From Pseudomonadales bacterium (GTDB taxonomy: Bacteria; Patescibacteriota; Microgenomatia; UBA1400; PJMF01): DNA of 64,000 nt. Within the stretch, counting starts at the first letter, position 1. Each line of letters starts with the position of its first letter. The notes beneath the pieces are model-generated. The model was not told the DNA's origin. It saw nothing but the letters and a program-made list of their open reading frames with translations, and did no database searches. Of this stretch, positions 2,570-24,059 are shown piece after piece. Made by a program: the position numbers and the translations under genes. The stretch covers positions 48,119 to 112,118 of the forward strand of contig JACKFX010000003.1 of assembly GCA_020632255.1 (NCBI GenBank), read 5' to 3'.

Positions 2570-3625
2570 TTTAGTCTCAATTTTCCACCGCGGTTTTCTG
2601 TCAATTTTTTTTGTACCGTTATTTTCATTTGCAGATTCTAATTTATAGCTCGCCACAATGCCAATCATCGCTCCATTATCCTGATTTAATCTTCGGGTGT
2701 ATGGGACTTTTAATTGCAAACCATCCGGCTTGATTGTTTCGCGTATCATTCGGCGCAAGGTTGTGTTTGAAGCAACGCCACCACCAAGCCAAATTTCTGC
2801 ATATTTCTCTTTTTCAATTAATTTACTCAGTTTATACATAATATGCCTAAATACCGAGTATTGAGCTGATGCACAAAAATCATATATTTGTTGTTTGTTT
2901 AATGCTTTTTCTTTCGTGATTTCTTCGAGTGTGTTTCGAGCAAAGGTTTTTAGTCCCGAGAAGCTCATGTTGTAGTCACCACTGCTTGTCATAGGGAGTG
3001 GAAACTCTATTGCTTTCGGGTTTCCCTGTTTAGCAAATTCTTCGATCACTGGGCCAGCTGGATAGCCAAGGTGGAGCATGCGGCCAATCTTATCTAAGCA
3101 TTCACCAGCAGCATCGTCCAAAGTTGTTCCAACAATTTCATACTTTCCAATGCTTGGAATAGAAATAAACTGGGTATGACCGCCACTCACAATAATAGCT
3201 AGAGCTGGAAATTTTGGCTGCGCATGTTTTTTGCTTAGCTGTGTTTTGGGAAGAGCTAGGTTTGAAAGAGCGTGTCCTTCAATGTGATTTACAGGAATAA
3301 TTGGTAGTGAGTGCTCCTGTGCAAATGCTTCAGCAGCTCTAATTCCCACTTCAAGCGCCGGAGCAAGCCCTGGGCCTTGGGTAACTGCAATAGCTGCTAG
3401 TTGCTGGGGTTTTGTTTGAGCTCTTTTAAGTGCCAACTCAATAACTCGATTAATATTTTCCTTGTGGGCTTGTTTAGCTACAGTTGGAAAGACCCCGCCA
3501 TATGGTTTATGCAGTTCTGTTTGCGAAGCAATTACGTTTGAAAGGACGACTCGACCCTCGACAACAGATGCTGAAGTGTCGTCACAAGATGTGTCGATGG
3601 CCAGAATGCGCGTTTTAGTTTTCAT
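2567..3625 (-). CDS. tsaD: tRNA N6-adenosine threonylcarbamoyltransferase TsaD (Kae1/Gcp family)
   Basis: The protein has MKTKTRILAIDTSCDDTSASVV.. and ..GPGLAPALEVGIRAAEAF..IPVNHIEGHALS, which are typical TsaD motifs. The start is placed at the internal ATG at 3625; the ORF-track start at 3673 adds 16 non-conserved aa and would overlap the upstream gene further. Confidence 0.85.
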   Translation of the reverse strand: MKTKTRILAIDTSCDDTSASVVEGRVVLSNVIASQTELHKPYGGVFPTVAKQAHKENINRVIELALKRAQTKPQQLAAIAVTQGPGLAPALEVGIRAAEAFAQEHSLPIIPVNHIEGHALSNLALPKTQLSKKHAQPKFPALAIIVSGGHTQFISIPSIGKYEIVGTTLDDAAGECLDKIGRMLHLGYPAGPVIEEFAKQGNPKAIEFPLPMTSSGDYNMSFSGLKTFARNTLEEITKEKALNKQQIYDFCASAQYSVFRHIMYKLSKLIEKEKYAEIWLGGGVASNTTLRRMIRETIKPDGLQLKVPYTRRLNQDNGAMIGIVASYKLESANENNGTKKIDRKPRWKIETK

Positions 3626-8763: not shown

Positions 8764-8766
8764 TTC

Positions 8767-8891
8767 GTAAAGACATAGACAAAAAGAGACGCTCAGCAAC
8801 ACTTCGCTGCTTGTAGCATCTCCAGAGGCTTTGTGCCATCTTCAAGATTACTTGTCGATGCTACAAAGCCTCTTTTTGTCTATGTCTTTAC
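8767..8891. repeat. MITE-like element: perfect 22-bp terminal inverted repeats GTAAAGACATAGACAAAAAGAG / CTCTTTTTGTCTATGTCTTTAC flanking ~81 bp with nested inverted repeats
   Basis: Left arm 8767-8788, right arm 8870-8891. Inner IRs are TGTAGCATC/GATGCTACA and GAGGCTTTG/CAAAGCCTC. The downstream spacer also has GAAGGCG-ttt-GCGCCTTC and GAGCCACGGA..TCCGTGGCTC hairpins, and a 24-nt direct repeat TCAGCAACACTTCGCTG.T..GTAG at 8793-8816 and 9032-9055. Confidence 0.45.
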
Positions 8892-9085
8892 TCACAGAGA
8901 ACTTGCTTTGAAGGCGTTTGGCGCCTTCTCCAAGCTCAGTGAGCCACGGACACAAATCACAAACAAGAACATGTAGATAGTCCGTGGCTCAAATGCTTCT
9001 GCAGCACTAAGTAGCTTTTTTTGCTAGTTGTTCAGCAACACTTCGCTGTTCGTAGAAGATTGATCTTTGACGTTTTACCTATTAA

Positions 9086-9113
9086 AATGCCTCGCTGTAC
9101 GCGAGGCATTTTT
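9086..9113. terminator. rho-independent terminator (groEL 3' end; convergent with pgeF)
   Basis: AATGCCTCGC-tgta-GCGAGGCATT followed by TTT. Confidence 0.6.
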
Positions 9114-9117
9114 GCGT

Positions 9118-9723: not shown

Positions 9724-9734
9724 TATGAAAAGTG

Positions 9735-9808
9735 TAGCAAGGGAGAGATTTGAACTCTCGACCTTCGGTTTATGAATCCGATGCTCTAACCAACTGAGCT
9801 ACCTTGCC
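9735..9808 (-). tRNA. tRNA with CAU anticodon (elongator Met or lysidine-modified Ile2)
   Basis: Reverse complement GGCAAGG-TA-GCTC-AGTTGGTTA-GAGC-A-TCGGA-TTCATAA-ACCGA-AGGTC-GAGAG-TTCAAAT-CTCTC-CCTTGCT-A folds as a 74-nt cloverleaf with U33 and A37. There is a G1-U72 wobble, and CCA is not encoded. Confidence 0.8.
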
Positions 9809-9850: not shown

Positions 9851-9891
9851 ATACCAGATTTTTGACAGCGATAAAGATCTGATGTATACTA
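9851..9891. promoter_or_regulatory. divergent tRNA promoters: plus-strand TTGACA-17-TATACT, minus-strand extended -10 TGGTATAAT
   Basis: Plus strand: -35 at 9862-9867 and -10 at 9885-9890. The minus-strand extended -10 is the reverse complement of 9851-9859. A leader hairpin CTGTCC-taa-GGACAG followed by a T-run (9897-9922) lies between the plus promoter and tRNA-fMet. Confidence 0.4.
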
Positions 9892-9933
9892 TCATCCTGT
9901 CCTAAGGACAGACTTTTTATTTAAAAGAATACG

Positions 9934-10002
9934 CGCGGGATAGTGTACGGTGCACGTGAGGCTCATAATCTCACAGGCTAGGTTCGACTCCTAGTCCCGC
10001 AA
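9934..10002 (+). tRNA. initiator-type tRNA-fMet (CAU anticodon, C1xA72 mismatch), unusually short (~69 nt)
   Basis: CGCGGGA-TA-GTGT..CAC-G-TGAGG-CTCATAA-TCTCA-CAGG-CTAGG-TTCGACT-CCTAG-TCCCGCA-A. It has the classic CTCATAA anticodon loop, a TTCGACT T-loop, and an unpaired C1/A72 as in bacterial initiator tRNA. The D-arm and variable loop are short. Confidence 0.7.
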
Positions 10003-10003
10003 A

Positions 10004-10150
10004 TTAAATAAAAAGGCTCCCTACTGGGAGTCTTTTTATTTAAGTGTGTGGTTGAATTTGAGTTGGTTGGCTTTGCCAACACGAATCTGACCGAGCCTCT
10101 GCTAGGGAATATCCGAAGCATGGGCGGAGGACCCAATCCCGCAAACTGAA
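10004..10150. repeat. ~145-bp repeat element, copy 1 (terminator hairpin + conserved ~110-nt segment)
   Basis: It aligns with 11537-11686, e.g. GGGAGT.TTTTTATTTAAG..TGTGGTT.A.TTTG.GTT..TTGG....CCAAC.CGAATCTGACCGA...GGCGGAG..., with compensatory changes in the TTGGC-ttt-GCCAA / TTGGT-gaa-GCCAA hairpin. Confidence 0.6.
10015..10040 (+). terminator. rho-independent terminator after tRNA-fMet
   Basis: GGCTCCC-tact-GGGAGTC followed by TTTTTATTT. Confidence 0.55.
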
Positions 10151-10235
10151 GAAGAGACCTAATTATGGTTCCTTTTTATTACATATATTTGATTATGATA
10201 AAATATCTTAGTTAGTAAAAAATAAATGGAAACTT

Positions 10236-10796
10236 ATGGCGGAAATACATATTAGAGCTGATCATGAGAGATTTGTTAGTCAGGATTTCATGCCCTCATC
10301 AAAAGAAGACTTATCTATTGTGTTTGAAGCTTTGTATAGAACATTTTCAAAATTATATCAACTCAAGTATGGGGTTCCTAAAGATGATATTGCTGGAATC
10401 CTGACTGATTTTACTTCATTAGGAGAAAGTGAATTATTACAAGTTAATACTTGGTGGACGCCAACAGAAGACTGGCCAGTCGATCGAATGTTAGAGGTTG
10501 GCTCTCAGCAAATTGCCTTAGCGATTTACCAATTACATTTTTCTGAAAATATGTTGGTAACGAGCACGATTGAACAAAGAGGTGTTGATCCTCAATTGAA
10601 TAAGACAATATTTGTGTATGGCTATAAGGATAAAGATGGCATTGTTCATGTGACTCAAGAAAAACCAATGATTGATGAATTTGGTAAGCAGATTATTGTG
10701 AATGGCACGCCTCAATATGACTCTGTTCAAGTTGAATATACTCAAGAAGATCTGAGGGTTTTAGCTGATGAGCTTGGTGAGTCAGATGCAGAGTAG
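10236..10796 (+). CDS. hypothetical protein (orphan, AT-rich)
   Basis: 186-aa ORF in the AT-rich islet. No recognisable domain. Confidence 0.45.
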   Translation: MAEIHIRADHERFVSQDFMPSSKEDLSIVFEALYRTFSKLYQLKYGVPKDDIAGILTDFTSLGESELLQVNTWWTPTEDWPVDRMLEVGSQQIALAIYQLHFSENMLVTSTIEQRGVDPQLNKTIFVYGYKDKDGIVHVTQEKPMIDEFGKQIIVNGTPQYDSVQVEYTQEDLRVLADELGESDAE

Positions 10797-10980
10797 GTTC
10801 TATTAATGAATTATATCAAAAAAACTACAACTTACTTGCACTTACATAGTCGTAAAGAACTTTGAAAAAAGTGTTGATTTTTATACTTCTTTACTTCAAT
10901 TAAGACTCCCAATGGATCTACTATTGGATTATTCTTAATTCTCCAAAATAAAAATCATCATTCTTTATAAAATAGGTTCG

Positions 10981-11003
10981 GATATCATCCCACATTCTCA
11001 ACA
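10981..11003. repeat. short direct repeat GATATCATCCCACATTC.CAACA (copy 1; copy 2 at 11513-11536)
   Basis: 22/24 nt identical. The flanking ~130 bp also show patchy similarity (10870-11005 vs 11400-11535). Confidence 0.5.
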
Positions 11004-11170
11004 ATAGTTCTCAGAAATAAACAAGTAATTCTTCTCATCAATCCAATTTTTAGGTTCTAATCCTTAATTTCATACAACTTGTTCCCTCAAGAAGATTTTA
11101 CGATATATGCTGGGATTAGAACTTATGATATACTTTGTACCACTTAATAACTATTTGTAAGAAAGATAAA

Positions 11171-11401
11171 ATGACAAAAGAAGTAGTAATTGATTGCGAA
11201 CAACCTATTGATGGGTTTGGAGGTCTAGTTATAATTTTATCTTATGTGCTTAACAGCATTCCAGTGAATGAATTATCTGCTGAACAACAAAAACAAATTG
11301 TATTTAATTTACCAGATGATTTAAGTGACTCAGAAATTAGGGCAATTATTGAACCGTGCATTGGTAATTTTGTTTTGCAAGTTGTCATTAATACTCTATA
11401 A
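11171..11401 (+). CDS. hypothetical small protein
   Basis: ORF MTKEVVIDCEQ.., inside the ORF-track 11135..11401. No domain recognised. Confidence 0.3.
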   Translation: MTKEVVIDCEQPIDGFGGLVIILSYVLNSIPVNELSAEQQKQIVFNLPDDLSDSEIRAIIEPCIGNFVLQVVINTL

Positions 11402-11536
11402 CACATATTATCCATCAGGTATATTTCTCCACTCCCAGTACTCCCTTTCACTGGGAATTTCCATCGCCAGCTCGGGGAAAACAAACTTCTCACAGCTAAT
11501 AATCCAGATTCTGATATCATCCCACATTCGCAACAC

Positions 11537-11686
11537 TTAAATAATAATACTGCCTTTTGGGAGTATTTTTATTTAAGCTTGTGGTTAACTTTGGGTTATT
11601 TGGTGAAGCCAACGCGAATCTGACCGAAGCGCAAGCGAGAGAATGTCAGGGGCGGAGACGAAAGACCCAGCTTACGCAAATTCATT
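11537..11686. repeat. ~145-bp repeat element, copy 2
   Basis: See copy 1. It starts with a degenerate hairpin TACTGCC-tttt-GGGAGTA-TTTTT. Confidence 0.6.
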
Positions 11687-12042
11687 CATTAATAGCTAAG
11701 ACTATTTTTATCCCAATTCCTTATCTAAAACAATTTTGATTTGATTATTTTTCTCTGAAAAAGAAAGACAACATATGAAAAAGCCCATGACGATATTCAA
11801 CAATTACTTAAATCTGGTTTATCAGACAAATTAGGTTTTGATTACTAAACAAAACTCTATACGCCAAATTCGATTAAGGTTGAGTAAGTAGGCCTAGAGA
11901 TTGACAAATGGATTATTTCTTGAAATAGTTATACCAAGAAGTTAAGAGAAACCACGACAATGGGACTCATGCTGTAAACCACAGAAATAGAGCACATTCA
12001 GAAAGGATCGACTCTTCATTAAAGAATCTGTTAAAAATTTCT

Positions 12043-14370: not shown

Positions 14371-17300
14371 TTACAATCCGTTTAAAAATCCAAATACTTC
14401 ACGCAAATTGGTTATGACAAGATCAAATGCATTATCCGTTGCTTTTGGGGTAATCGTAACGGTATCGATAGATCTCGACTCATTGTTAGCGCTATCTCTT
14501 GAAATTGCTCGTAAATGATATACCTTAGAAGGGGTTAAGCCCGAAACAATAACTAGATGATTGTAGGTGAGTGTTCGATCTTCTTGAGTGGTTTGAGAAT
14601 AACTCACTCCCGTGCCATCACCAAATTCAACCTGCGAAGTCGCTGGCTCATCTGTTGTCCATGTCACAACAAGTTGCGAATTAGACTCTTGGGCGGTTGT
14701 ATTTACCTGAGGAACATTAGTTCCCTCAACAGTTAGATCGGTAATTCTTGGTGGTCGTGTATCTGTGGCCGTAGTAAATCGTAAGTTGTCAGATACTGCC
14801 TCATTACCAATTCTGTCTCTTCCTTTTACAATTAAAATGTACGATGTTTCGGGCAGTAAGCCAGGCACTATCATTTCATGTTCTCCATCAAGCAGTTCTA
14901 TATCGACTGCATCTCGAGCATATTCCGGGTTTGACTCAGGGTAGAAGGTAATAATTGATGAAATCGGCGTGTTCGATTCCCATGTCACTCGTATTGACGA
15001 CTGAGCTGTGTTGGCAACTTGCTGTACTCTCACATTACTCACTTCAGGTCGTGGTAGGGTTTCAAAATCGAGGATTGTGCCAGCATATGTGTCTGCTTCA
15101 GAATCTTCTGTGTCAATTTTAAAGTAATATTTTGTGCCATCATCCAAATCCGAGAGTTGAATCGCGTACGTCGTTTCTAAAGAAGACGTTGCAATTGTTT
15201 CAATGCCACCAAATGAGGTTGACTTGCCGTAACTAATGTTGGCTGCAGATGCACCAACTGTAGTAAATTCAATCAAAGCCGAATCTATGCCAATGTTTTT
15301 AACTACAACATCTTTCACCAACGGTGCAGGATTTGTCTGGAAGCTTTTTTCTTCTGACTCTCCAGTGTTACCATCCTCGTCGGTCCATTTTGTTTTATAG
15401 TAGTATGTCTTTCCGGGTTCTAAATTAATGAGATTAATTGTGTGTTCAGAAACTTGAGTAGAATTTGAAGTTTCTTCATCCTCGTAATTGCCTGAGCTCG
15501 TTCCAATAGAAACTTTACTATCACTAGTTCTAGCGGTAGTCCACGTAATGGTTGCACGTTTGGTTGTAATTGATGAAGCTGCGGGTCCAGAGGTCAGCTC
15601 TGCTGGCTCAGTGTATGCGCCTTTGGGAATAAGTGAGACCGCATTACTGTATGAGGGACTTGCGATCGATTCGTCAGATGAGTCAGTCGCGGCAACGCGC
15701 CAATAGTACAAGCTGGACGTACTGAGAGTGTCTAAAAAGGCCAAGCCGCTTGTGCTATCTATGTCTGTCCATGAATTGGCATCATTCGATCTTTGAATGG
15801 TATACGTAAGATCTCCTGTGCCTCTATAATCTGGGCTAGACCAAGCTAATGATGCTCTCCACAACGAGGCAGTCTTGACCGATGCGTCTGAAACAACGAG
15901 TGATTGGGGGGCATCCGGTAACGACGAATCTAGAGTGAAGTTTCCATAAATATAATTACTCTGTGAATAATTTTGGTTGTCATCAACTGCCACTACATAT
16001 ATCGTATTTGAACCCTTCCGCACATTAGACAATGACGTTGTAGAAATACTTGTTTGGGTTGTGGGCACATATGTTGCCGAATTTGAAGTAATAGTTTGAT
16101 ACAAGGCTGGTGGAGCAGTATTAATCATATAGTAGTAGTTTGTAATGGTTCTGCCATCTGATGGGGTCGCATCGGGCCAATTAAATGAATACATATTTTC
16201 CGTATTGGTGGAAGGTGTTATTGTGACCACAGCCGAGCTGTCGAAAGCCGGTGCTTCTCCTCCATATTCTAGGGGGGCAGTTGTAAACGCGGAAGCATTA
16301 CCCGCCCTATCAACGGTTCTAAAATAGAGTACATTACTCCCAACAATAATGTCGTCTCCAACCACGCTTGCATTCAGTGAAAAGGGCTGAGCCGAATCTG
16401 TGGCAATATACTCATATCCAGTGGTGACGTCGGTTATAATTCCTCTCCACGTGTCTGTTGAATTAACAGCGTATTGATAGCCCAAAATACCCGAACCTGC
16501 ATCGCTTGCTGCTTGCGGACCACTGATAGGCCAATAAAAATTCATATCAGCAATACTAGATACACTCCCCGAAGAAGCGGAGATTGTTTTGACATTATTA
16601 GGAGATGTACCATCAAAATAAAATGAAAAAGTACTACTAGCTGTATCATTTTGCCCAGCATTATTCGCAGTATCTATTGGTCGAATTTTGAAGTAATAGG
16701 GTTCACTGCTAGAGGAAAGCCATGTGTTTCCTCTCAACGCCGTATTGGAAAAATCAACCGAGTTATCATCGATAATAAATTGGCAGTTAGATCCTGTGGT
16801 AGAAACTGGAGAGGCCCCCAGTAATCCCTTTTGAGTTGAAGGATCACCGTCAGGATCAGTGCCTAAATACAGGCAGTAGCCCTTGAGTCCAGAAGTATCG
16901 CCATTTGTAATCCAAGAAAAGTAGATATCCGAACGACTAAACCAGACCACAGATGAATCGTCTGTGTGCGTTGTGGGATGGGCCGCATAAGCCTTCATGT
17001 TTGTGGTCACCACATTTGTAGGGGAAGTCGTATCAATTGCAAATGCTGGGTCTCCGGATGCATCAACCCAGGCTGATTCAGCGTCGTTTTCATCAATTGT
17101 TTTTACTCTCCAATAATAGTCACCTTCTGCCAAAGTCTGCCCTGCAGAACCAACTGCATATGTTCCAGATCCAGCGTTCTGACCAACGGTAAATGAAGCA
17201 GATCCCTGCAGCATTAGCGATCCAGTAAAGTCAATGACCACTGAAGAAAAATCGGCAGTATCAGCAACTTGAATTTGATACTTTACCTGATTTTCTGAAT

Positions 17301-19416
17301 CTGGATCTGACTGCGAAAACAAAAAAGTGGGAGTTGTATCATTGCTACGTTGACTATCAATAAAAACTGATGTTCCGGGGATAATAGGATCACTTGGATT
17401 GGCATTGAGTACAACGGAAAAGTCGGTTTCAGACTCAGCGTTCTCTCCATACACAATCCATTGAGAGCAATAATCTGACGAATTACACACCCGTGATTGC
17501 CAATGGTAGTTTGTTAAGTCTTCTAATCCTGACACAGTGACCGAGCCCACGACGGGGGTGTCGACATAACTCGTTTCAGGGCTGGTATGAGTAGCAGTAT
17601 CGGTGAATGCATCGCCCACTACTCTAACTTCGAACTCTGCGTATAGTTGATCGGAAGAATCTGGGTCGCTCATCAAAACCTCAAGAACTATTGAGTCTTC
17701 ATGGACCTGGCCACCAACTTCAATTTCTGAATCTTCAGAATCCAATTGGGTTGATGATCCGGGCTTAGAGGGAAGACCACTTAAGAAGAATGTGCCATCT
17801 TCTCCCACATATAATGGGTTGGAGTGCGTTCCAGCAGCAACCGAAAATGATCCCAAAAATTCATTGATGTGGCTAATAATTGAAACTCTTCCGCCTCCTC
17901 CAGAACCGCCAACTCCGTTTGAATTGCCCCCTTTCGCTGAAATTGATCCCGATCCAGATAACACTCCGTGGGCCAATAACCACAAGCTACCTCCAGCTCC
18001 TGCTCCATTTTCACTCGTATTTTCTCCACCGTCGGCCGCAAGCGTCCCATTAATAGTGAGTTGATCGTAGGCAGTAATTTTAATTGCGCCACCACCCCGA
18101 CCAGTAGTTATTGTAGAACTTTGACCAAAGGCACCGCCGCTACCCAAAGTAATTGGACTTATTTCAGACCCATAAGTTATACCGCCATACACTGTAGAAC
18201 CACTTGATCCCTGAGTGTTTCCTCCTTTGCCCCCGTGACCTCCACCACCTCCAGTATATCGAGTTCGAACTCCTCCAGCTCCTGGTCCTTTTGCAATTTC
18301 ATATCCTAATCCGGTACTGGTAAGAGTACTTCCAGAATCAATGGTTAGAGTATCGACAGTAATATCCCAACCATAGCCGCTTTCATCTACTTGATCTGTG
18401 TTTTTTGAGGCTAGTTGCAAGGTACTATTGTTTGTAACTAGAATACTCGTAATGGTGGGAAATGTATCTCTAAAATACGTGTAAGAATCTGGATACCACT
18501 TTTGTGAGTTTCGAATGTTGAGTGAGTTATCATCGGTATCAAGCACTATGGCGGTACCATTTGTGCCAGAATACAGAGCATTTGAAGTATTCACACCACC
18601 TGTTGCCACCAAAGTCAATGTATCCGAAAATGAAGCCGTTTCTAAGACTATCCTCCCTCCTGCTCCAGCACCAGAACCACCCGTTGCTCCACCTCCCACT
18701 GACGAAATCGTTCCCGATCCACCAACAGCAGCATCCCCAACAATCCAGATACTACCTCCCGAACCAGCACCGCCCCATTGTGTGCCCGCTCCTCCATTTG
18801 TAGAAATCAATCCATCAACTACCACATCTCCTGCAGAAACTATTTTAATCGCTCCTCCTCCTGAACCTCCGGCAGGAGTGCCTTGACCAATGCCGCCTCC
18901 ACTTCCCAAATCTATGGGGGCAATCAAAGAACCATATATAATCCCTCCCAATGATATGTTGCCGTTTCCCCCTGTGCCTCCATATCCACCTCCTGCGCCA
19001 CTATATTGCCCCGTCCTGTTTCCACCAACTCCCGGACCATAAGTAAATGGGTAACCCTGAGCATCTGCCGCTAGTATGCCCCCAGATTCCACAGTGAGCG
19101 CTCCCACTTGCAGTGTCACGCCAAAATCATCGTCGTAATTAGTGTCTCCAGTTTCGTAGCTCTCCAATGTTACCGTAGTCCCTGAAGTAATATGTAATTC
19201 AACACTTGAACAATCAAAAATGCCGGAATTTGCTAATGAAGCAGATATAGATCGATTGGTATTAATCAAAATCGTGCCATTTACAGTAGAATCACCATCA
19301 CCGAATCCACCATCAACATAAGGACACGACACCGCACTTACTTGAGAAACAAAAAAAAGACGCAAGAACGAAATCGCGCTTAGACTCAAGAAAAGTCCTA
19401 CTTTCAGCTTATTCAT
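14371..19416 (-). CDS. giant secreted surface protein (1681 aa): signal peptide, two Gly-rich ~270-aa repeat modules, then Ig/FN3-like beta-rich domains
   Basis: N-terminal MNKLKVGLFLSLSAISFLRLFFVSQVSAVS. There are internally duplicated blocks (..GGGYGGTGGNGNISLGGIIYGS..GGGAIKIVSAGD.. versus ..GGGGGHGGKGGNTQG..GGITYGS..GGGAIKITAYDQ..). The long S/T-rich C-terminal two thirds has repeated YYWRV / YYFK beta-sandwich-like units. Confidence 0.75.
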   Translation of the reverse strand: MNKLKVGLFLSLSAISFLRLFFVSQVSAVSCPYVDGGFGDGDSTVNGTILINTNRSISASLANSGIFDCSSVELHITSGTTVTLESYETGDTNYDDDFGVTLQVGALTVESGGILAADAQGYPFTYGPGVGGNRTGQYSGAGGGYGGTGGNGNISLGGIIYGSLIAPIDLGSGGGIGQGTPAGGSGGGAIKIVSAGDVVVDGLISTNGGAGTQWGGAGSGGSIWIVGDAAVGGSGTISSVGGGATGGSGAGAGGRIVLETASFSDTLTLVATGGVNTSNALYSGTNGTAIVLDTDDNSLNIRNSQKWYPDSYTYFRDTFPTITSILVTNNSTLQLASKNTDQVDESGYGWDITVDTLTIDSGSTLTSTGLGYEIAKGPGAGGVRTRYTGGGGGHGGKGGNTQGSSGSTVYGGITYGSEISPITLGSGGAFGQSSTITTGRGGGAIKITAYDQLTINGTLAADGGENTSENGAGAGGSLWLLAHGVLSGSGSISAKGGNSNGVGGSGGGGRVSIISHINEFLGSFSVAAGTHSNPLYVGEDGTFFLSGLPSKPGSSTQLDSEDSEIEVGGQVHEDSIVLEVLMSDPDSSDQLYAEFEVRVVGDAFTDTATHTSPETSYVDTPVVGSVTVSGLEDLTNYHWQSRVCNSSDYCSQWIVYGENAESETDFSVVLNANPSDPIIPGTSVFIDSQRSNDTTPTFLFSQSDPDSENQVKYQIQVADTADFSSVVIDFTGSLMLQGSASFTVGQNAGSGTYAVGSAGQTLAEGDYYWRVKTIDENDAESAWVDASGDPAFAIDTTSPTNVVTTNMKAYAAHPTTHTDDSSVVWFSRSDIYFSWITNGDTSGLKGYCLYLGTDPDGDPSTQKGLLGASPVSTTGSNCQFIIDDNSVDFSNTALRGNTWLSSSSEPYYFKIRPIDTANNAGQNDTASSTFSFYFDGTSPNNVKTISASSGSVSSIADMNFYWPISGPQAASDAGSGILGYQYAVNSTDTWRGIITDVTTGYEYIATDSAQPFSLNASVVGDDIIVGSNVLYFRTVDRAGNASAFTTAPLEYGGEAPAFDSSAVVTITPSTNTENMYSFNWPDATPSDGRTITNYYYMINTAPPALYQTITSNSATYVPTTQTSISTTSLSNVRKGSNTIYVVAVDDNQNYSQSNYIYGNFTLDSSLPDAPQSLVVSDASVKTASLWRASLAWSSPDYRGTGDLTYTIQRSNDANSWTDIDSTSGLAFLDTLSTSSLYYWRVAATDSSDESIASPSYSNAVSLIPKGAYTEPAELTSGPAASSITTKRATITWTTARTSDSKVSIGTSSGNYEDEETSNSTQVSEHTINLINLEPGKTYYYKTKWTDEDGNTGESEEKSFQTNPAPLVKDVVVKNIGIDSALIEFTTVGASAANISYGKSTSFGGIETIATSSLETTYAIQLSDLDDGTKYYFKIDTEDSEADTYAGTILDFETLPRPEVSNVRVQQVANTAQSSIRVTWESNTPISSIITFYPESNPEYARDAVDIELLDGEHEMIVPGLLPETSYILIVKGRDRIGNEAVSDNLRFTTATDTRPPRITDLTVEGTNVPQVNTTAQESNSQLVVTWTTDEPATSQVEFGDGTGVSYSQTTQEDRTLTYNHLVIVSGLTPSKVYHLRAISRDSANNESRSIDTVTITPKATDNAFDLVITNLREVFGFLNGL

Positions 19417-22438: not shown

Positions 22439-22720
22439 ATGAAGGATTATACCTTCAAATTACCTGTAAATACGAGTGTCTCTGATTTGACAGTGGTATT
22501 TACAAATGATTACTATAATCCAGACACCGGTCAAAACCGTACACTCGAGTTTGATTACCTTAAGATTGGCAACAAAGTGTACCTGTCTGAAGTAGTTGCA
22601 ACGTACTCCAATGGAAGTTGTGGAGGGAGGCAATCGTATTTTCGCTGTTATTTTGAAAAAACACTATTGTGCACACATATGCAACCTAGAAGAGAATTTC
22701 CAGCCACTTTTCTTGGTTAG
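22439..22720 (+). CDS. hypothetical small protein (possible domain fragment)
   Basis: 93-aa ORF with no signal peptide. It overlaps the ftsB 3' end convergently by 35 bp. Weak call. Confidence 0.2.
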   Translation: MKDYTFKLPVNTSVSDLTVVFTNDYYNPDTGQNRTLEFDYLKIGNKVYLSEVVATYSNGSCGGRQSYFRCYFEKTLLCTHMQPRREFPATFLG

Positions 22721-23192: not shown

Positions 23193-24059
23193 ATGCAAAA
23201 GACACTAACTGATGCACATGCGCTTTTTACTCAGCATCTTAAAGATTCTGGGAAGGCTCATGCTACTGTAATCGCATATAGTAAAGATATTGAGCAATTG
23301 GTTGAGTTTGTTGGAAAAAAGGGCAAAGGAACAATTGATGAGGTTTCTGACACTGATATCAACGAGTTCAAGGAATTACTCAAGAAACAACGCTACACTG
23401 GAAAATCTATTTCAAGAAAAATTAACTCAATTAAAGCCTTCTTTAGATTTTGTATTGGTCAAGGAATGATCAATGATAACCCCGCTGAAGTAATTACACA
23501 TCCAAAATATGAATTGACACCTCCTCGAGTATTATCTCGCATTGAGTATCGCGCGCTTCGTGATGCTTGCCGCGGCGACGCTCGTATGTACGCTGTTGTT
23601 GAGCTCTTGCTCCAAACTGGTATGCGTATTTCTGAGTTAGCAGCTCTCCAAATCGGAGATGTTGATTTTGATCGTAAGGTTTTAATCATTAAAGCTCAAA
23701 ATTCTCGAGAAGCACGCAAAGTTCCTTTGAATGAAGCTGCAAAAGAGGCCATCATGGACTATCTCCAAGTTCGCCCTCGTGCACGAGAAAAGACTGTTTT
23801 CCTTACAAAAACATGTCGACCATTCTTAGTTCGCAACATTCGTACTGCTATTGATCGTTATTTCCGCTTAGCTGGTATCAAAGATGCTAAAGTCAATGAC
23901 CTCCGTCACACCTTCATCGTCGAACAGCTCAAGGCTGGAACTCCACTTGTGTATGTTTCACAATTGGTTGGTCACAAGAGAATTACCACTACTGAGAAAT
24001 ACTTGAAGCTTATCGAAGCTCCAGAAATGACTCCTAACGTTCGAATTGAAGAGTTATAA
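23193..24059 (+). CDS. tyrosine site-specific recombinase (XerC/XerD/phage-integrase family)
   Basis: ..LLLQTGMRISELAALQIGDVD.. (catalytic R), ..LRHTFIVEQLKAGTPLVYVSQLVGHKRITTTEKYLKL (H-x-x-R ... Y catalytic residues). Confidence 0.75.
   Translation: MQKTLTDAHALFTQHLKDSGKAHATVIAYSKDIEQLVEFVGKKGKGTIDEVSDTDINEFKELLKKQRYTGKSISRKINSIKAFFRFCIGQGMINDNPAEVITHPKYELTPPRVLSRIEYRALRDACRGDARMYAVVELLLQTGMRISELAALQIGDVDFDRKVLIIKAQNSREARKVPLNEAAKEAIMDYLQVRPRAREKTVFLTKTCRPFLVRNIRTAIDRYFRLAGIKDAKVNDLRHTFIVEQLKAGTPLVYVSQLVGHKRITTTEKYLKLIEAPEMTPNVRIEEL

Follow-up and report, generated by a model that had tools for sequence, protein, structure and literature searches.

The locus considered here, which belongs to a Candidatus Woesebacteria genome of the Candidate Phyla Radiation (CPR), raises the question of why an essentially identical layout of hairpin, short conserved blocks and weak terminator, which we call R, should stand directly behind the initiator tRNA gene (tRNA-fMet) and again some 1.5 kb further on, at both ends of an AT-rich islet. 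The stretch analysed (the window hereafter) comprises 64,000 nucleotides of contig JACKFX010000003.1 from assembly GCA_020632255.1. An initial annotation of this DNA had likened the islet to a gene-cassette array or to the remnant of a tRNA-targeted integrative element, and had also considered a duplicated small structured RNA. Our comparison with related genomes identified R as a non-coding module, conserved in a subclade of Candidatus Woesebacteria, that goes with the initiator-type tRNA-Met gene. From its position, strand preference and predicted fold we tentatively propose, as a reading that may well prove wrong, that R functions as a plus-strand RNA belonging to the 3' trailer of tRNA-fMet.

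R occurs in the window as direct repeats, R1 (10004-10184) and R2 (11537-11714), at a spacing of 1533 bp, and R1 starts two bases past tRNA-fMet. The parts of the two copies, together with the tRNA gene in front of them, are the following.

9862-9890, plus strand: promoter of the initiator tRNA, TTGACA-17-TATACT, with 11/12 consensus matches; the same element is kept in the relatives L079 and L081 presented below.
9934-10002, plus strand: initiator-type tRNA-Met(CAT) with a C1.A72 mismatch (ARAGORN and Rfam tRNA model).
10004-10043, either strand: T1, a symmetric (bidirectional) terminator hairpin that opens R1, with 18-nt arms that are 94% complementary.
10047-10094, plus strand: R1 core, made up of block A (10047-10066), the optional stem P3 (10067-10079) and block B (GAATCTGACCGA, 10083-10094), from RNAalifold and pair counts; by the same evidence the predicted pairs are P1 (10049-10054 with 10088-10093) and P2 (10057-10060 with 10082-10085); covariance-model match of 79 bits.
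10095-10155, plus strand: variable 3' half of R1, containing GGCGGAG, alignable with the copy R4 and partly with R2, and shortened in the copy R3.
10156-10180, plus strand: T2, a weak hairpin with a T-run that closes R1, read from the sequence; a four-sequence hidden Markov model (HMM) aligns it with the end of the L079 copy.
11537-11576, either strand: T1', the terminator hairpin that opens R2, 82% identical to T1.
11580-11627, plus strand: R2 core, with block A (11580-11599), P3 containing a U.G pair, and block B (11616-11627); covariance-model match of 75 bits.
11628-11714, plus strand: 3' half of R2 with a weak T2' (hairpin 11692-11705, T-run 11706-11711), from sequence reading, HMM and alignment.

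Identity between the copies is 79% without gaps over the first 91 nt (10004-10094 versus 11537-11627). A global alignment gives 72% over the 145 nt for which about 75% had been claimed, which bears out the direct repeats 3' of tRNA-fMet, and 70% over the full unit, which extends to about 180 nt because the weak second hairpin and its T-run also belong to R. The 19-nt motif CCAAC.CGAATCTGACCGA occurs exactly twice in the window versus 0.05 occurrences expected by chance, and GGCGGAG is found in both R1 and R2. Furthermore, an HMM trained on nothing but R3 and R4, which come from two other species, retrieves R1 (E 2e-22) and R2 (E 3e-16) as its two best matches in the 64 kb, and the same model deprived of the terminator still scores both (E 4e-14 and 3e-10, respectively). 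The similarity between R1 and R2 is far beyond chance. The compensatory changes that had been read in the terminator stem come down to one double change (G-C to T-A) and one repaired wobble, beside one new G.G mismatch. The AT-rich character of the islet is confirmed by an interior GC content of 0.33 against 0.42 in the flanks.

Relatives of the source organism were reached via GroEL similarity to the window. Two further Woesebacteria species carry a single copy of R each, directly 3' of an identical tRNA-fMet: R3 at L079:12812-12950 (species L079/L080, GroEL 86% identical) and R4 at L081:10050-10188 (species L081-L083, GroEL 88% identical), both recovered by nhmmer with an HMM made from the window only (E 1e-22 and 8e-9, respectively). 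The inspection of the tRNA-fMet 3' neighbourhood suggested by the initial annotation thus found R as a fixture there in two other species, and copies of R do exist in relatives; the absence of any further copy, which the annotation had named as grounds for refutation, does not hold. Since only 39% of the GroEL four-fold degenerate sites are identical between the window and these relatives, neutral sites are saturated. The R core is nonetheless 81-84% identical between the window and L079, the R1 core matching L079 at 84% over 51 nt; this is the level of the tRNA promoter and of a conserved patch upstream of groES, and R is therefore under constraint. Selection has kept R as a non-coding module across species at this degree of neutral-site saturation. 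The gene that follows R is ORF1 in the window, an HSP20 gene with its own promoter in L079 and a 91-aa open reading frame (ORF) in L081; this variation ties R to the tRNA and not to the next gene.

Further searches delimit the family. The covariance model, run over 180 kb of Woesebacteria DNA, retrieved R1, R2, R3 and R4 only, and by this model and the HMM all copies except R2 sit at tRNA-fMet; a miniature inverted-repeat transposable element or other dispersed repeat was rejected on this distribution. In Rfam 15 only the two tRNAs of the locus reach the gathering threshold, and up to E 10 nothing covers the body of R. Exact-core scans retrieved no true copy of R from 185,579 species-representative genomes, Joint Genome Institute (JGI) metagenomes or viral contigs. 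The 42 genome and 16 metagenome matches all fall in taxa unrelated to this one, most of them of high GC, and are similar in the seed alone, and the viral contigs gave nothing, or a match within a coding region. The presence of CCAAC was obligatory in these scans, so that R3 (CCAAG) and R4 (stem deleted) could not be matched, and the absence of other copies holds for near-identical cores only.

All copies share the order T1, fixed-length spacer, block A (TGTGGTTRAMTYKRRGTT, TGTGGTTRA...), optional distal stem, block B (GAATCYGACCGA), variable tail and T2. T1 is flagged as terminator-like in the window and has an equivalent hairpin in L079 and L081; its sequence is free to vary, the R4 stem being unrelated and still forming a hairpin of 20 pairs. 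Blocks A and B pair (P1, P2) into an imperfect hairpin of 45-58 nt, from which the distal stem TTGGC-NNN-GCCAA is dispensable: a 13-nt deletion in R4 takes out exactly this stem and keeps both flanking blocks, which is what a dispensable hairpin tip would look like. An indel of 13 nt between conserved blocks also means that R is not coding, and a coding reading, for which the copies offer no common frame, was rejected. The consensus fold comprises 15 predicted pairs, with 96% of the cells paired versus no more than 47% after sliding the partners; two U.G pairs never vary and one pair is seen as AU, GU and GC. The outermost pair of the distal stem, identified by eye outside the consensus prediction, is G-C in R1 and C-G in R3, and each of the three copies that retain this stem has its own set of three loop bases. 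On the plus strand the 15 pairs amount to -3.0 kcal/mol, versus 7 pairs and -0.6 kcal/mol on the minus strand. Moreover, sigma-70-like promoters near R in L079 and L081 lie on the plus strand only, and are those of the tRNA and of the next gene. Because only the plus strand sustains the conserved helix, the promoters of the relatives point only that way and R travels with the tRNA, we favour a plus-strand role at the RNA level, to which this evidence points weakly and which we infer with corresponding reserve.

Under this reading, transcription of tRNA-fMet would read through T1 and stop at T2, so that R RNA would be made within the 3' trailer of that transcript; its role could be regulatory or related to processing, comparable to that of a tRNA 3'-external-transcribed-spacer (3'-ETS) RNA. 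Several points weigh against it. The position of R with respect to T1 and T2 fits a 3'-ETS-type origin only if T1 is read through; T1 looks an efficient terminator and R has no promoter dedicated to it, so that plus-strand transcription of R depends on that read-through. Covariation amounts to one pair with a double change, which 245/500 shuffles equal among the four independent sequences, single-sequence folding of the R body is ordinary (z -1.6 for R1, +0.35 for R2), and the 3' half is devoid of structural conservation. A DNA site bound by a protein would be just as compatible with the invariant blocks of 7 and 12 nt. Finally, the family comprises three species so far, and R is absent from L007 and L052, in which GroEL is 77% identical and the same tRNA is present. 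Among the options initially put forward, a duplicated small structured RNA is the best supported, by a conserved, non-coding hairpin that works on the plus strand only; as to the structured part of the claim, the search of Rfam and the covariance analysis yielded no known family and 15 pairs with one double change in four sequences, which is covariation too thin for a structured RNA.

The islet contains two ORFs, each followed by a copy of a second repeat, S.

10236-10796, plus strand: ORF1, 186 aa, with a predicted tautomerase-superfamily fold.
10931-11008, plus strand: S1, preceded by a hairpin at 10909-10927 (repeat searches, alignment and HMM).
11171-11401, plus strand: ORF2, 76 aa, without family match, present only on contigs of the same species.
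11463-11535, plus strand: S2, preceded by a hairpin at 11433-11456 and abutting T1', detected with an HMM of the copies of genome L008 alone (E 2.7e-5).

Both ORFs had been described as orphans, which does not apply to ORF1, for which five clusters of homologues were found. ORF1 adjoins the same tRNA-fMet in L007 and L052, both of which are without R. ORF1 and its homologues share a predicted fold of the tautomerase superfamily (4-OT/MIF/cis-CaaD), with an invariant Met-Ala-Glu N-terminus and not the catalytic Pro1; this fold rejects ORF1 as a small recombinase, and neither ORF matches a recombinase in Pfam, NCBIfam or PHROG.

The S repeats were found where a second family had been reported (10977-11003 and 11509-11535), with a flanking similarity of about 80 nt and not the 130 bp initially given. 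S recurs in the Woesebacteria metagenome-assembled genome L008 (GCA_964473195.1), where two copies flank a small DUF6487 gene and precede an ORF1 homologue that is 58% identical to ORF1; HMMs built each from one genome, either the window or L008, give the copies of the other genome as top matches (E 2.7e-5 and 3.9e-7). We regard S as a separate repeat family beside small ORFs next to ORF1 homologues, as judged from these sequence matches. Its 3' part is 87% identical within a genome versus 60-70% between genomes, and each stretch holds only two copies. No stable fold was found for S on either strand (z -1.5 to +1.4), so that the check for attC-like sites proposed in the initial annotation came out negative, and no matches to S were detected in viral contigs. 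A small minus-strand ORF in S (MLRMWDDIRIW...) is open in all four copies and was rejected on its flat codon-position differences (59/65/67); its frame has neither a Pfam match nor a homologue. A derivation of S or R from the tRNA or its promoter was likewise rejected, the local alignments equalling those of shuffles once multiple tests are counted. L008 also carries an 83-nt repeat (1197-1279 and 3051-3133, 93% identical) before two toxin-antitoxin-like modules, whose 5' end (TTCACCCACCGCGCAACA) resembles the 3' end of S; this repeat was not found in the window.

As to the history of the two copies, alignments indicate that R1 is the native copy from end to end: R3 is the nearest match to its T1 and 5' half, R4 can be aligned with its 3' half, and its T2 is alignable with that of R3. 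R2 is about equally far from R1 and R3 (74%) and diverged throughout, and the comparison of R1 with R2 shows no hybrid pattern such as a crossover inside R would leave. Homology between R1 and R2 spans from the first base of T1 to the T-run of T2; its ends are those of the module and therefore the whole module was copied. R2 is accordingly a whole further copy of the module, which an old duplication or an import would have brought to its place behind ORF2 and S2, in an event that may have taken place inside the stretch of interspecies gene turnover between the tRNA and the DivIC/Xer genes. Over 3.27 kb, the strain variant L003 (SRR28385526) shows nine differences from the window, 8/9 of them within R2, where the changes (window 11550-11618) destroy block B and the distal stem and leave the R1 of the same strain untouched. 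With R2 broken and R1 intact, R2 looks redundant, and it appears from this variant to be decaying in at least one strain. The clustering of differences in the R2 of L003 could reflect either localised decay or gene conversion from an unseen R-like copy.

To the right of R, everything up to DivIC/Xer differs between species. Two features mark the far end of this stretch.

22439-22720, plus strand: 5'-truncated remnant of a CBM60 gene (Pfam CBM60), at the right edge of an inserted or replaced block.
23193-24059, plus strand: Xer-type tyrosine recombinase, outside the islet (Pfam and NCBIfam: XerD 165 bits, integron integrase 81 bits against a cut-off of 265 bits for that model).

The CBM60 remnant is 62% identical to residues 318-377 of a 403-aa protein next to DivIC in L081; as it lies where L081 has the full gene, about 12 kb must have been inserted or replaced. 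The search for an integron-type recombinase returned only the Xer-type enzyme, 11.5 kb from the islet and at the same syntenic position in L007, L079 and L081; no recombinase was found in or beside the islet, nor any other than the Xer-type one among the annotated genes. No other repeat-bounded units were detected in the variable regions of the window, L079, L081 and L007. Within the species-specific block, 14371-19416 encodes a predicted surface protein of 1681 aa beside a MacB/FtsX-ABC pair. Stretches of low GC (0.35-0.37) lie at 22-28 kb.

Against this background, the alternative that survives best, and which we still deem unlikely, holds that R is a DNA-level attachment or recombination site, or a protein-binding site, at a point of entry of foreign DNA, with R1 and R2 as the junctions of an ORF1-S1-ORF2-S2 insertion. 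The direct repeats do bracket a low-GC segment (0.33 versus 0.42), the content from R to DivIC/Xer is species-specific, the truncated CBM60 gene marks a replaced block, and the invariant TGTGGTT and GAATCYGACCGA could be binding sites. In addition, TCCCGCAAA in R1 equals the tRNA 3' end (p 0.026 uncorrected); this likeness is not significant after correction for 54 tests, R2 retains only CGCAAATT of it, and the repeat itself starts past the tRNA. Against it, no integrase or recombinase stands in or beside the segment, the predicted fold of ORF1 being of the tautomerase type and the Xer gene lying 11.5 kb off at a conserved position. Moreover, R1 is native and R2 diverged, each at full length, with neither a hybrid nor an identical core between unrelated arms; gene content changes to the right of T2 and not within R; and viral contigs hold nothing real. 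ORF1, too, stands beside the same tRNA in L007 and L052, which lack R. As regards an empty site with a single att copy, L079 and L081 have one R each without ORF1, ORF2 or S, but with other genes behind it, and L007 has ORF1 without R. Of the initial idea of a tRNA-targeted integrative element, the hypervariable stretch from R to DivIC/Xer and the low GC give weak support; the missing integrase, a repeat that is not a tRNA 3' end, a native R1 in place of a hybrid attachment (att) site and the ORF1 gene beside the same tRNA in a relative without R speak against it.

Distinctly improbable is the opposite polarity, in which R would be a small RNA gene on the minus strand, transcribed toward the tRNA and ended by T1, with blocks B and A as single-stranded seeds. 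T1 is symmetric and scores as a minus-strand terminator, body plus terminator make up a canonical small-RNA gene layout on that strand, and promoter-like hexamers lie past T2 at 10219-10192 (R1) and 11771-11744 (R2). Such promoter-like matches are, on the other hand, no commoner than in shuffles (10 found, 8.6 expected) and have no counterpart at the equivalent place in L079 and L081. The U.G pairs of the helix become A.C mismatches on the minus strand, whose consensus fold is weak, and T2, conserved between R1 and R3, is left without a role. It would be a somewhat longer shot still that R represents a new class of functional RNA derived from the CPR initiator-tRNA transcript, and/or that R or S are gene-capture sites that need neither an integrase of a known type nor sites forming hairpins; if gene capture were true, small genes flanked by S would have been inserted beside ORF1 homologues in different Woesebacteria.

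That R2 is the neutral by-product of a local segmental duplication, with neither copy functional, appears very improbable and is already largely refuted for R1. The 64 kb hold only two copies, the exact-core scans of the collections gave no true one and R2 is disrupted in one strain; those scans were, however, blind to copies like R3 and R4, orthologous R persists in two other species despite saturated neutral sites, R2 retains the two invariant blocks and is picked up by an HMM without window sequences, and the R1-R2 homology has the limits of the module, with T1 at its start and T2 at its end. A small integron-like array with S (and R) as cassette recombination sites, as initially proposed, is scarcely credible: its [ORF][S][ORF][S] layout, the greater uniformity of the S 3' part within a genome (87%) than between genomes (60-70%) and the L008 copies of S flanking a DUF6487 gene before an ORF1 homologue, in a run of small genes with toxin-antitoxin-like pairs, are outweighed by the lack of an integron integrase, by an S that is not attC-like and forms no stable hairpin on either strand, by just two S copies per stretch and by the anchoring of R to tRNA-fMet in species that have no ORF1, ORF2 or S. 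Two further candidates were rejected, the template/variable repeat pair of a diversity-generating retroelement, because R1 and R2 differ in all four bases and not specifically at adenines (no reverse transcriptase occurs among the annotated neighbours), and a replication origin or terminus (DnaA-box-like TGTGGTT, dif), because there is no switch in GC skew and TGTGGTTRAMT occurs at chance frequency.

On the left, the locus is a conserved block of TsaD, Sua5/TsaE, YidC, Band 7, GroES, GroEL and a YfiH-like gene, followed by the tRNA-Met genes, whose positions ARAGORN and the Rfam tRNA model bear out for both. Two further features belong here.

9734-9808, minus strand: elongator-type tRNA-Met(CAT) (ARAGORN and Rfam tRNA model, 72 bits).
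9897-9924, plus strand: T0, a terminator-like hairpin within the tRNA leader, followed by a T-run and similar to the 3' half of T1.

The initiator-type tRNA-Met measures 69 nt; its D loop is short, its anticodon stem (UGAGG/UCUCA) lacks the three G-C pairs that are usual there, and its sequence is 100% identical in the window, L007, L052, L079 and L081, whose GroEL proteins are only 77-88% identical. T0, situated downstream of the conserved tRNA-fMet promoter and ahead of the tRNA, shares 79% identity with the 3' half of T1 and has no counterpart in the tRNA leader of either L079 or L081; an active T0 would have an attenuating effect on initiator-tRNA transcription. Between GroEL and the YfiH-like gene, 355 bp (8764-9117) hold no credible gene, the sole ORF (8833-8976) encoding 47 aa; L078 and L081 have a Peptidase_M48 gene at the equivalent place, and two short patches there are kept with L079. 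ORF1 is 99% identical to a protein of GCA_020429005.1, and contigs of several public runs equal the window at 99.7-100%; the organism occurs in the samples of SRR12358676, SRR14234114/118 and SRR28385526-29. Those of its public contigs that extend upstream as far as the initiator-type tRNA-Met all start inside that tRNA.

CPR bacteria have tiny genomes and few known regulatory RNAs. R is therefore of interest as a candidate regulatory RNA behind a single initiator tRNA gene or, alternatively, as a candidate signal by which a tRNA gene that is essential and strongly transcribed would be shielded from its fast-changing surroundings. The stretch from tRNA-fMet to DivIC/Xer is in itself a gene-turnover hot spot open to cross-species comparison. 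In practical terms the finding is of modest value, the family being narrow, with three species so far.

Among known systems, the islet resembles integron cassettes in its small ORFs of the same orientation, each followed by an S repeat, and differs from them in having no IntI, an S that is no imperfect palindrome and two units only. It is similar to tRNA-linked islands and integrative elements (attL/attR) in lying beside a tRNA, with direct repeats around low-GC DNA and a variable neighbourhood; unlike these, it has no integrase, its repeat is a 180-nt module downstream of the tRNA and not the tRNA 3' end, R1 is not hybrid, and relatives without the enclosed genes have R in single copy. R also resembles the intergenic structured RNA candidates of comparative studies (e.g. 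Weinberg et al. 2017, PMC5737381), with which it shares a short conserved hairpin, a narrow range and detection only by comparing relatives; its covariation support is below what such studies require, and Rfam 15 does not contain it. Nearest in kind among known RNAs would be 3'ETS-leuZ, the 3' external transcribed spacer RNA of the glyW-cysT-leuZ operon of E. coli (Lalaouna et al. 2015, summarised in PMC8383071). That RNA lies between tRNA and terminator, whereas R comes after the strong terminator-like T1 and before the weak T2, and the two have no sequence similarity. R is like 3'ETS-leuZ in being a conserved non-coding segment directly 3' of a tRNA, on the same strand and tied to it and not to the next gene.

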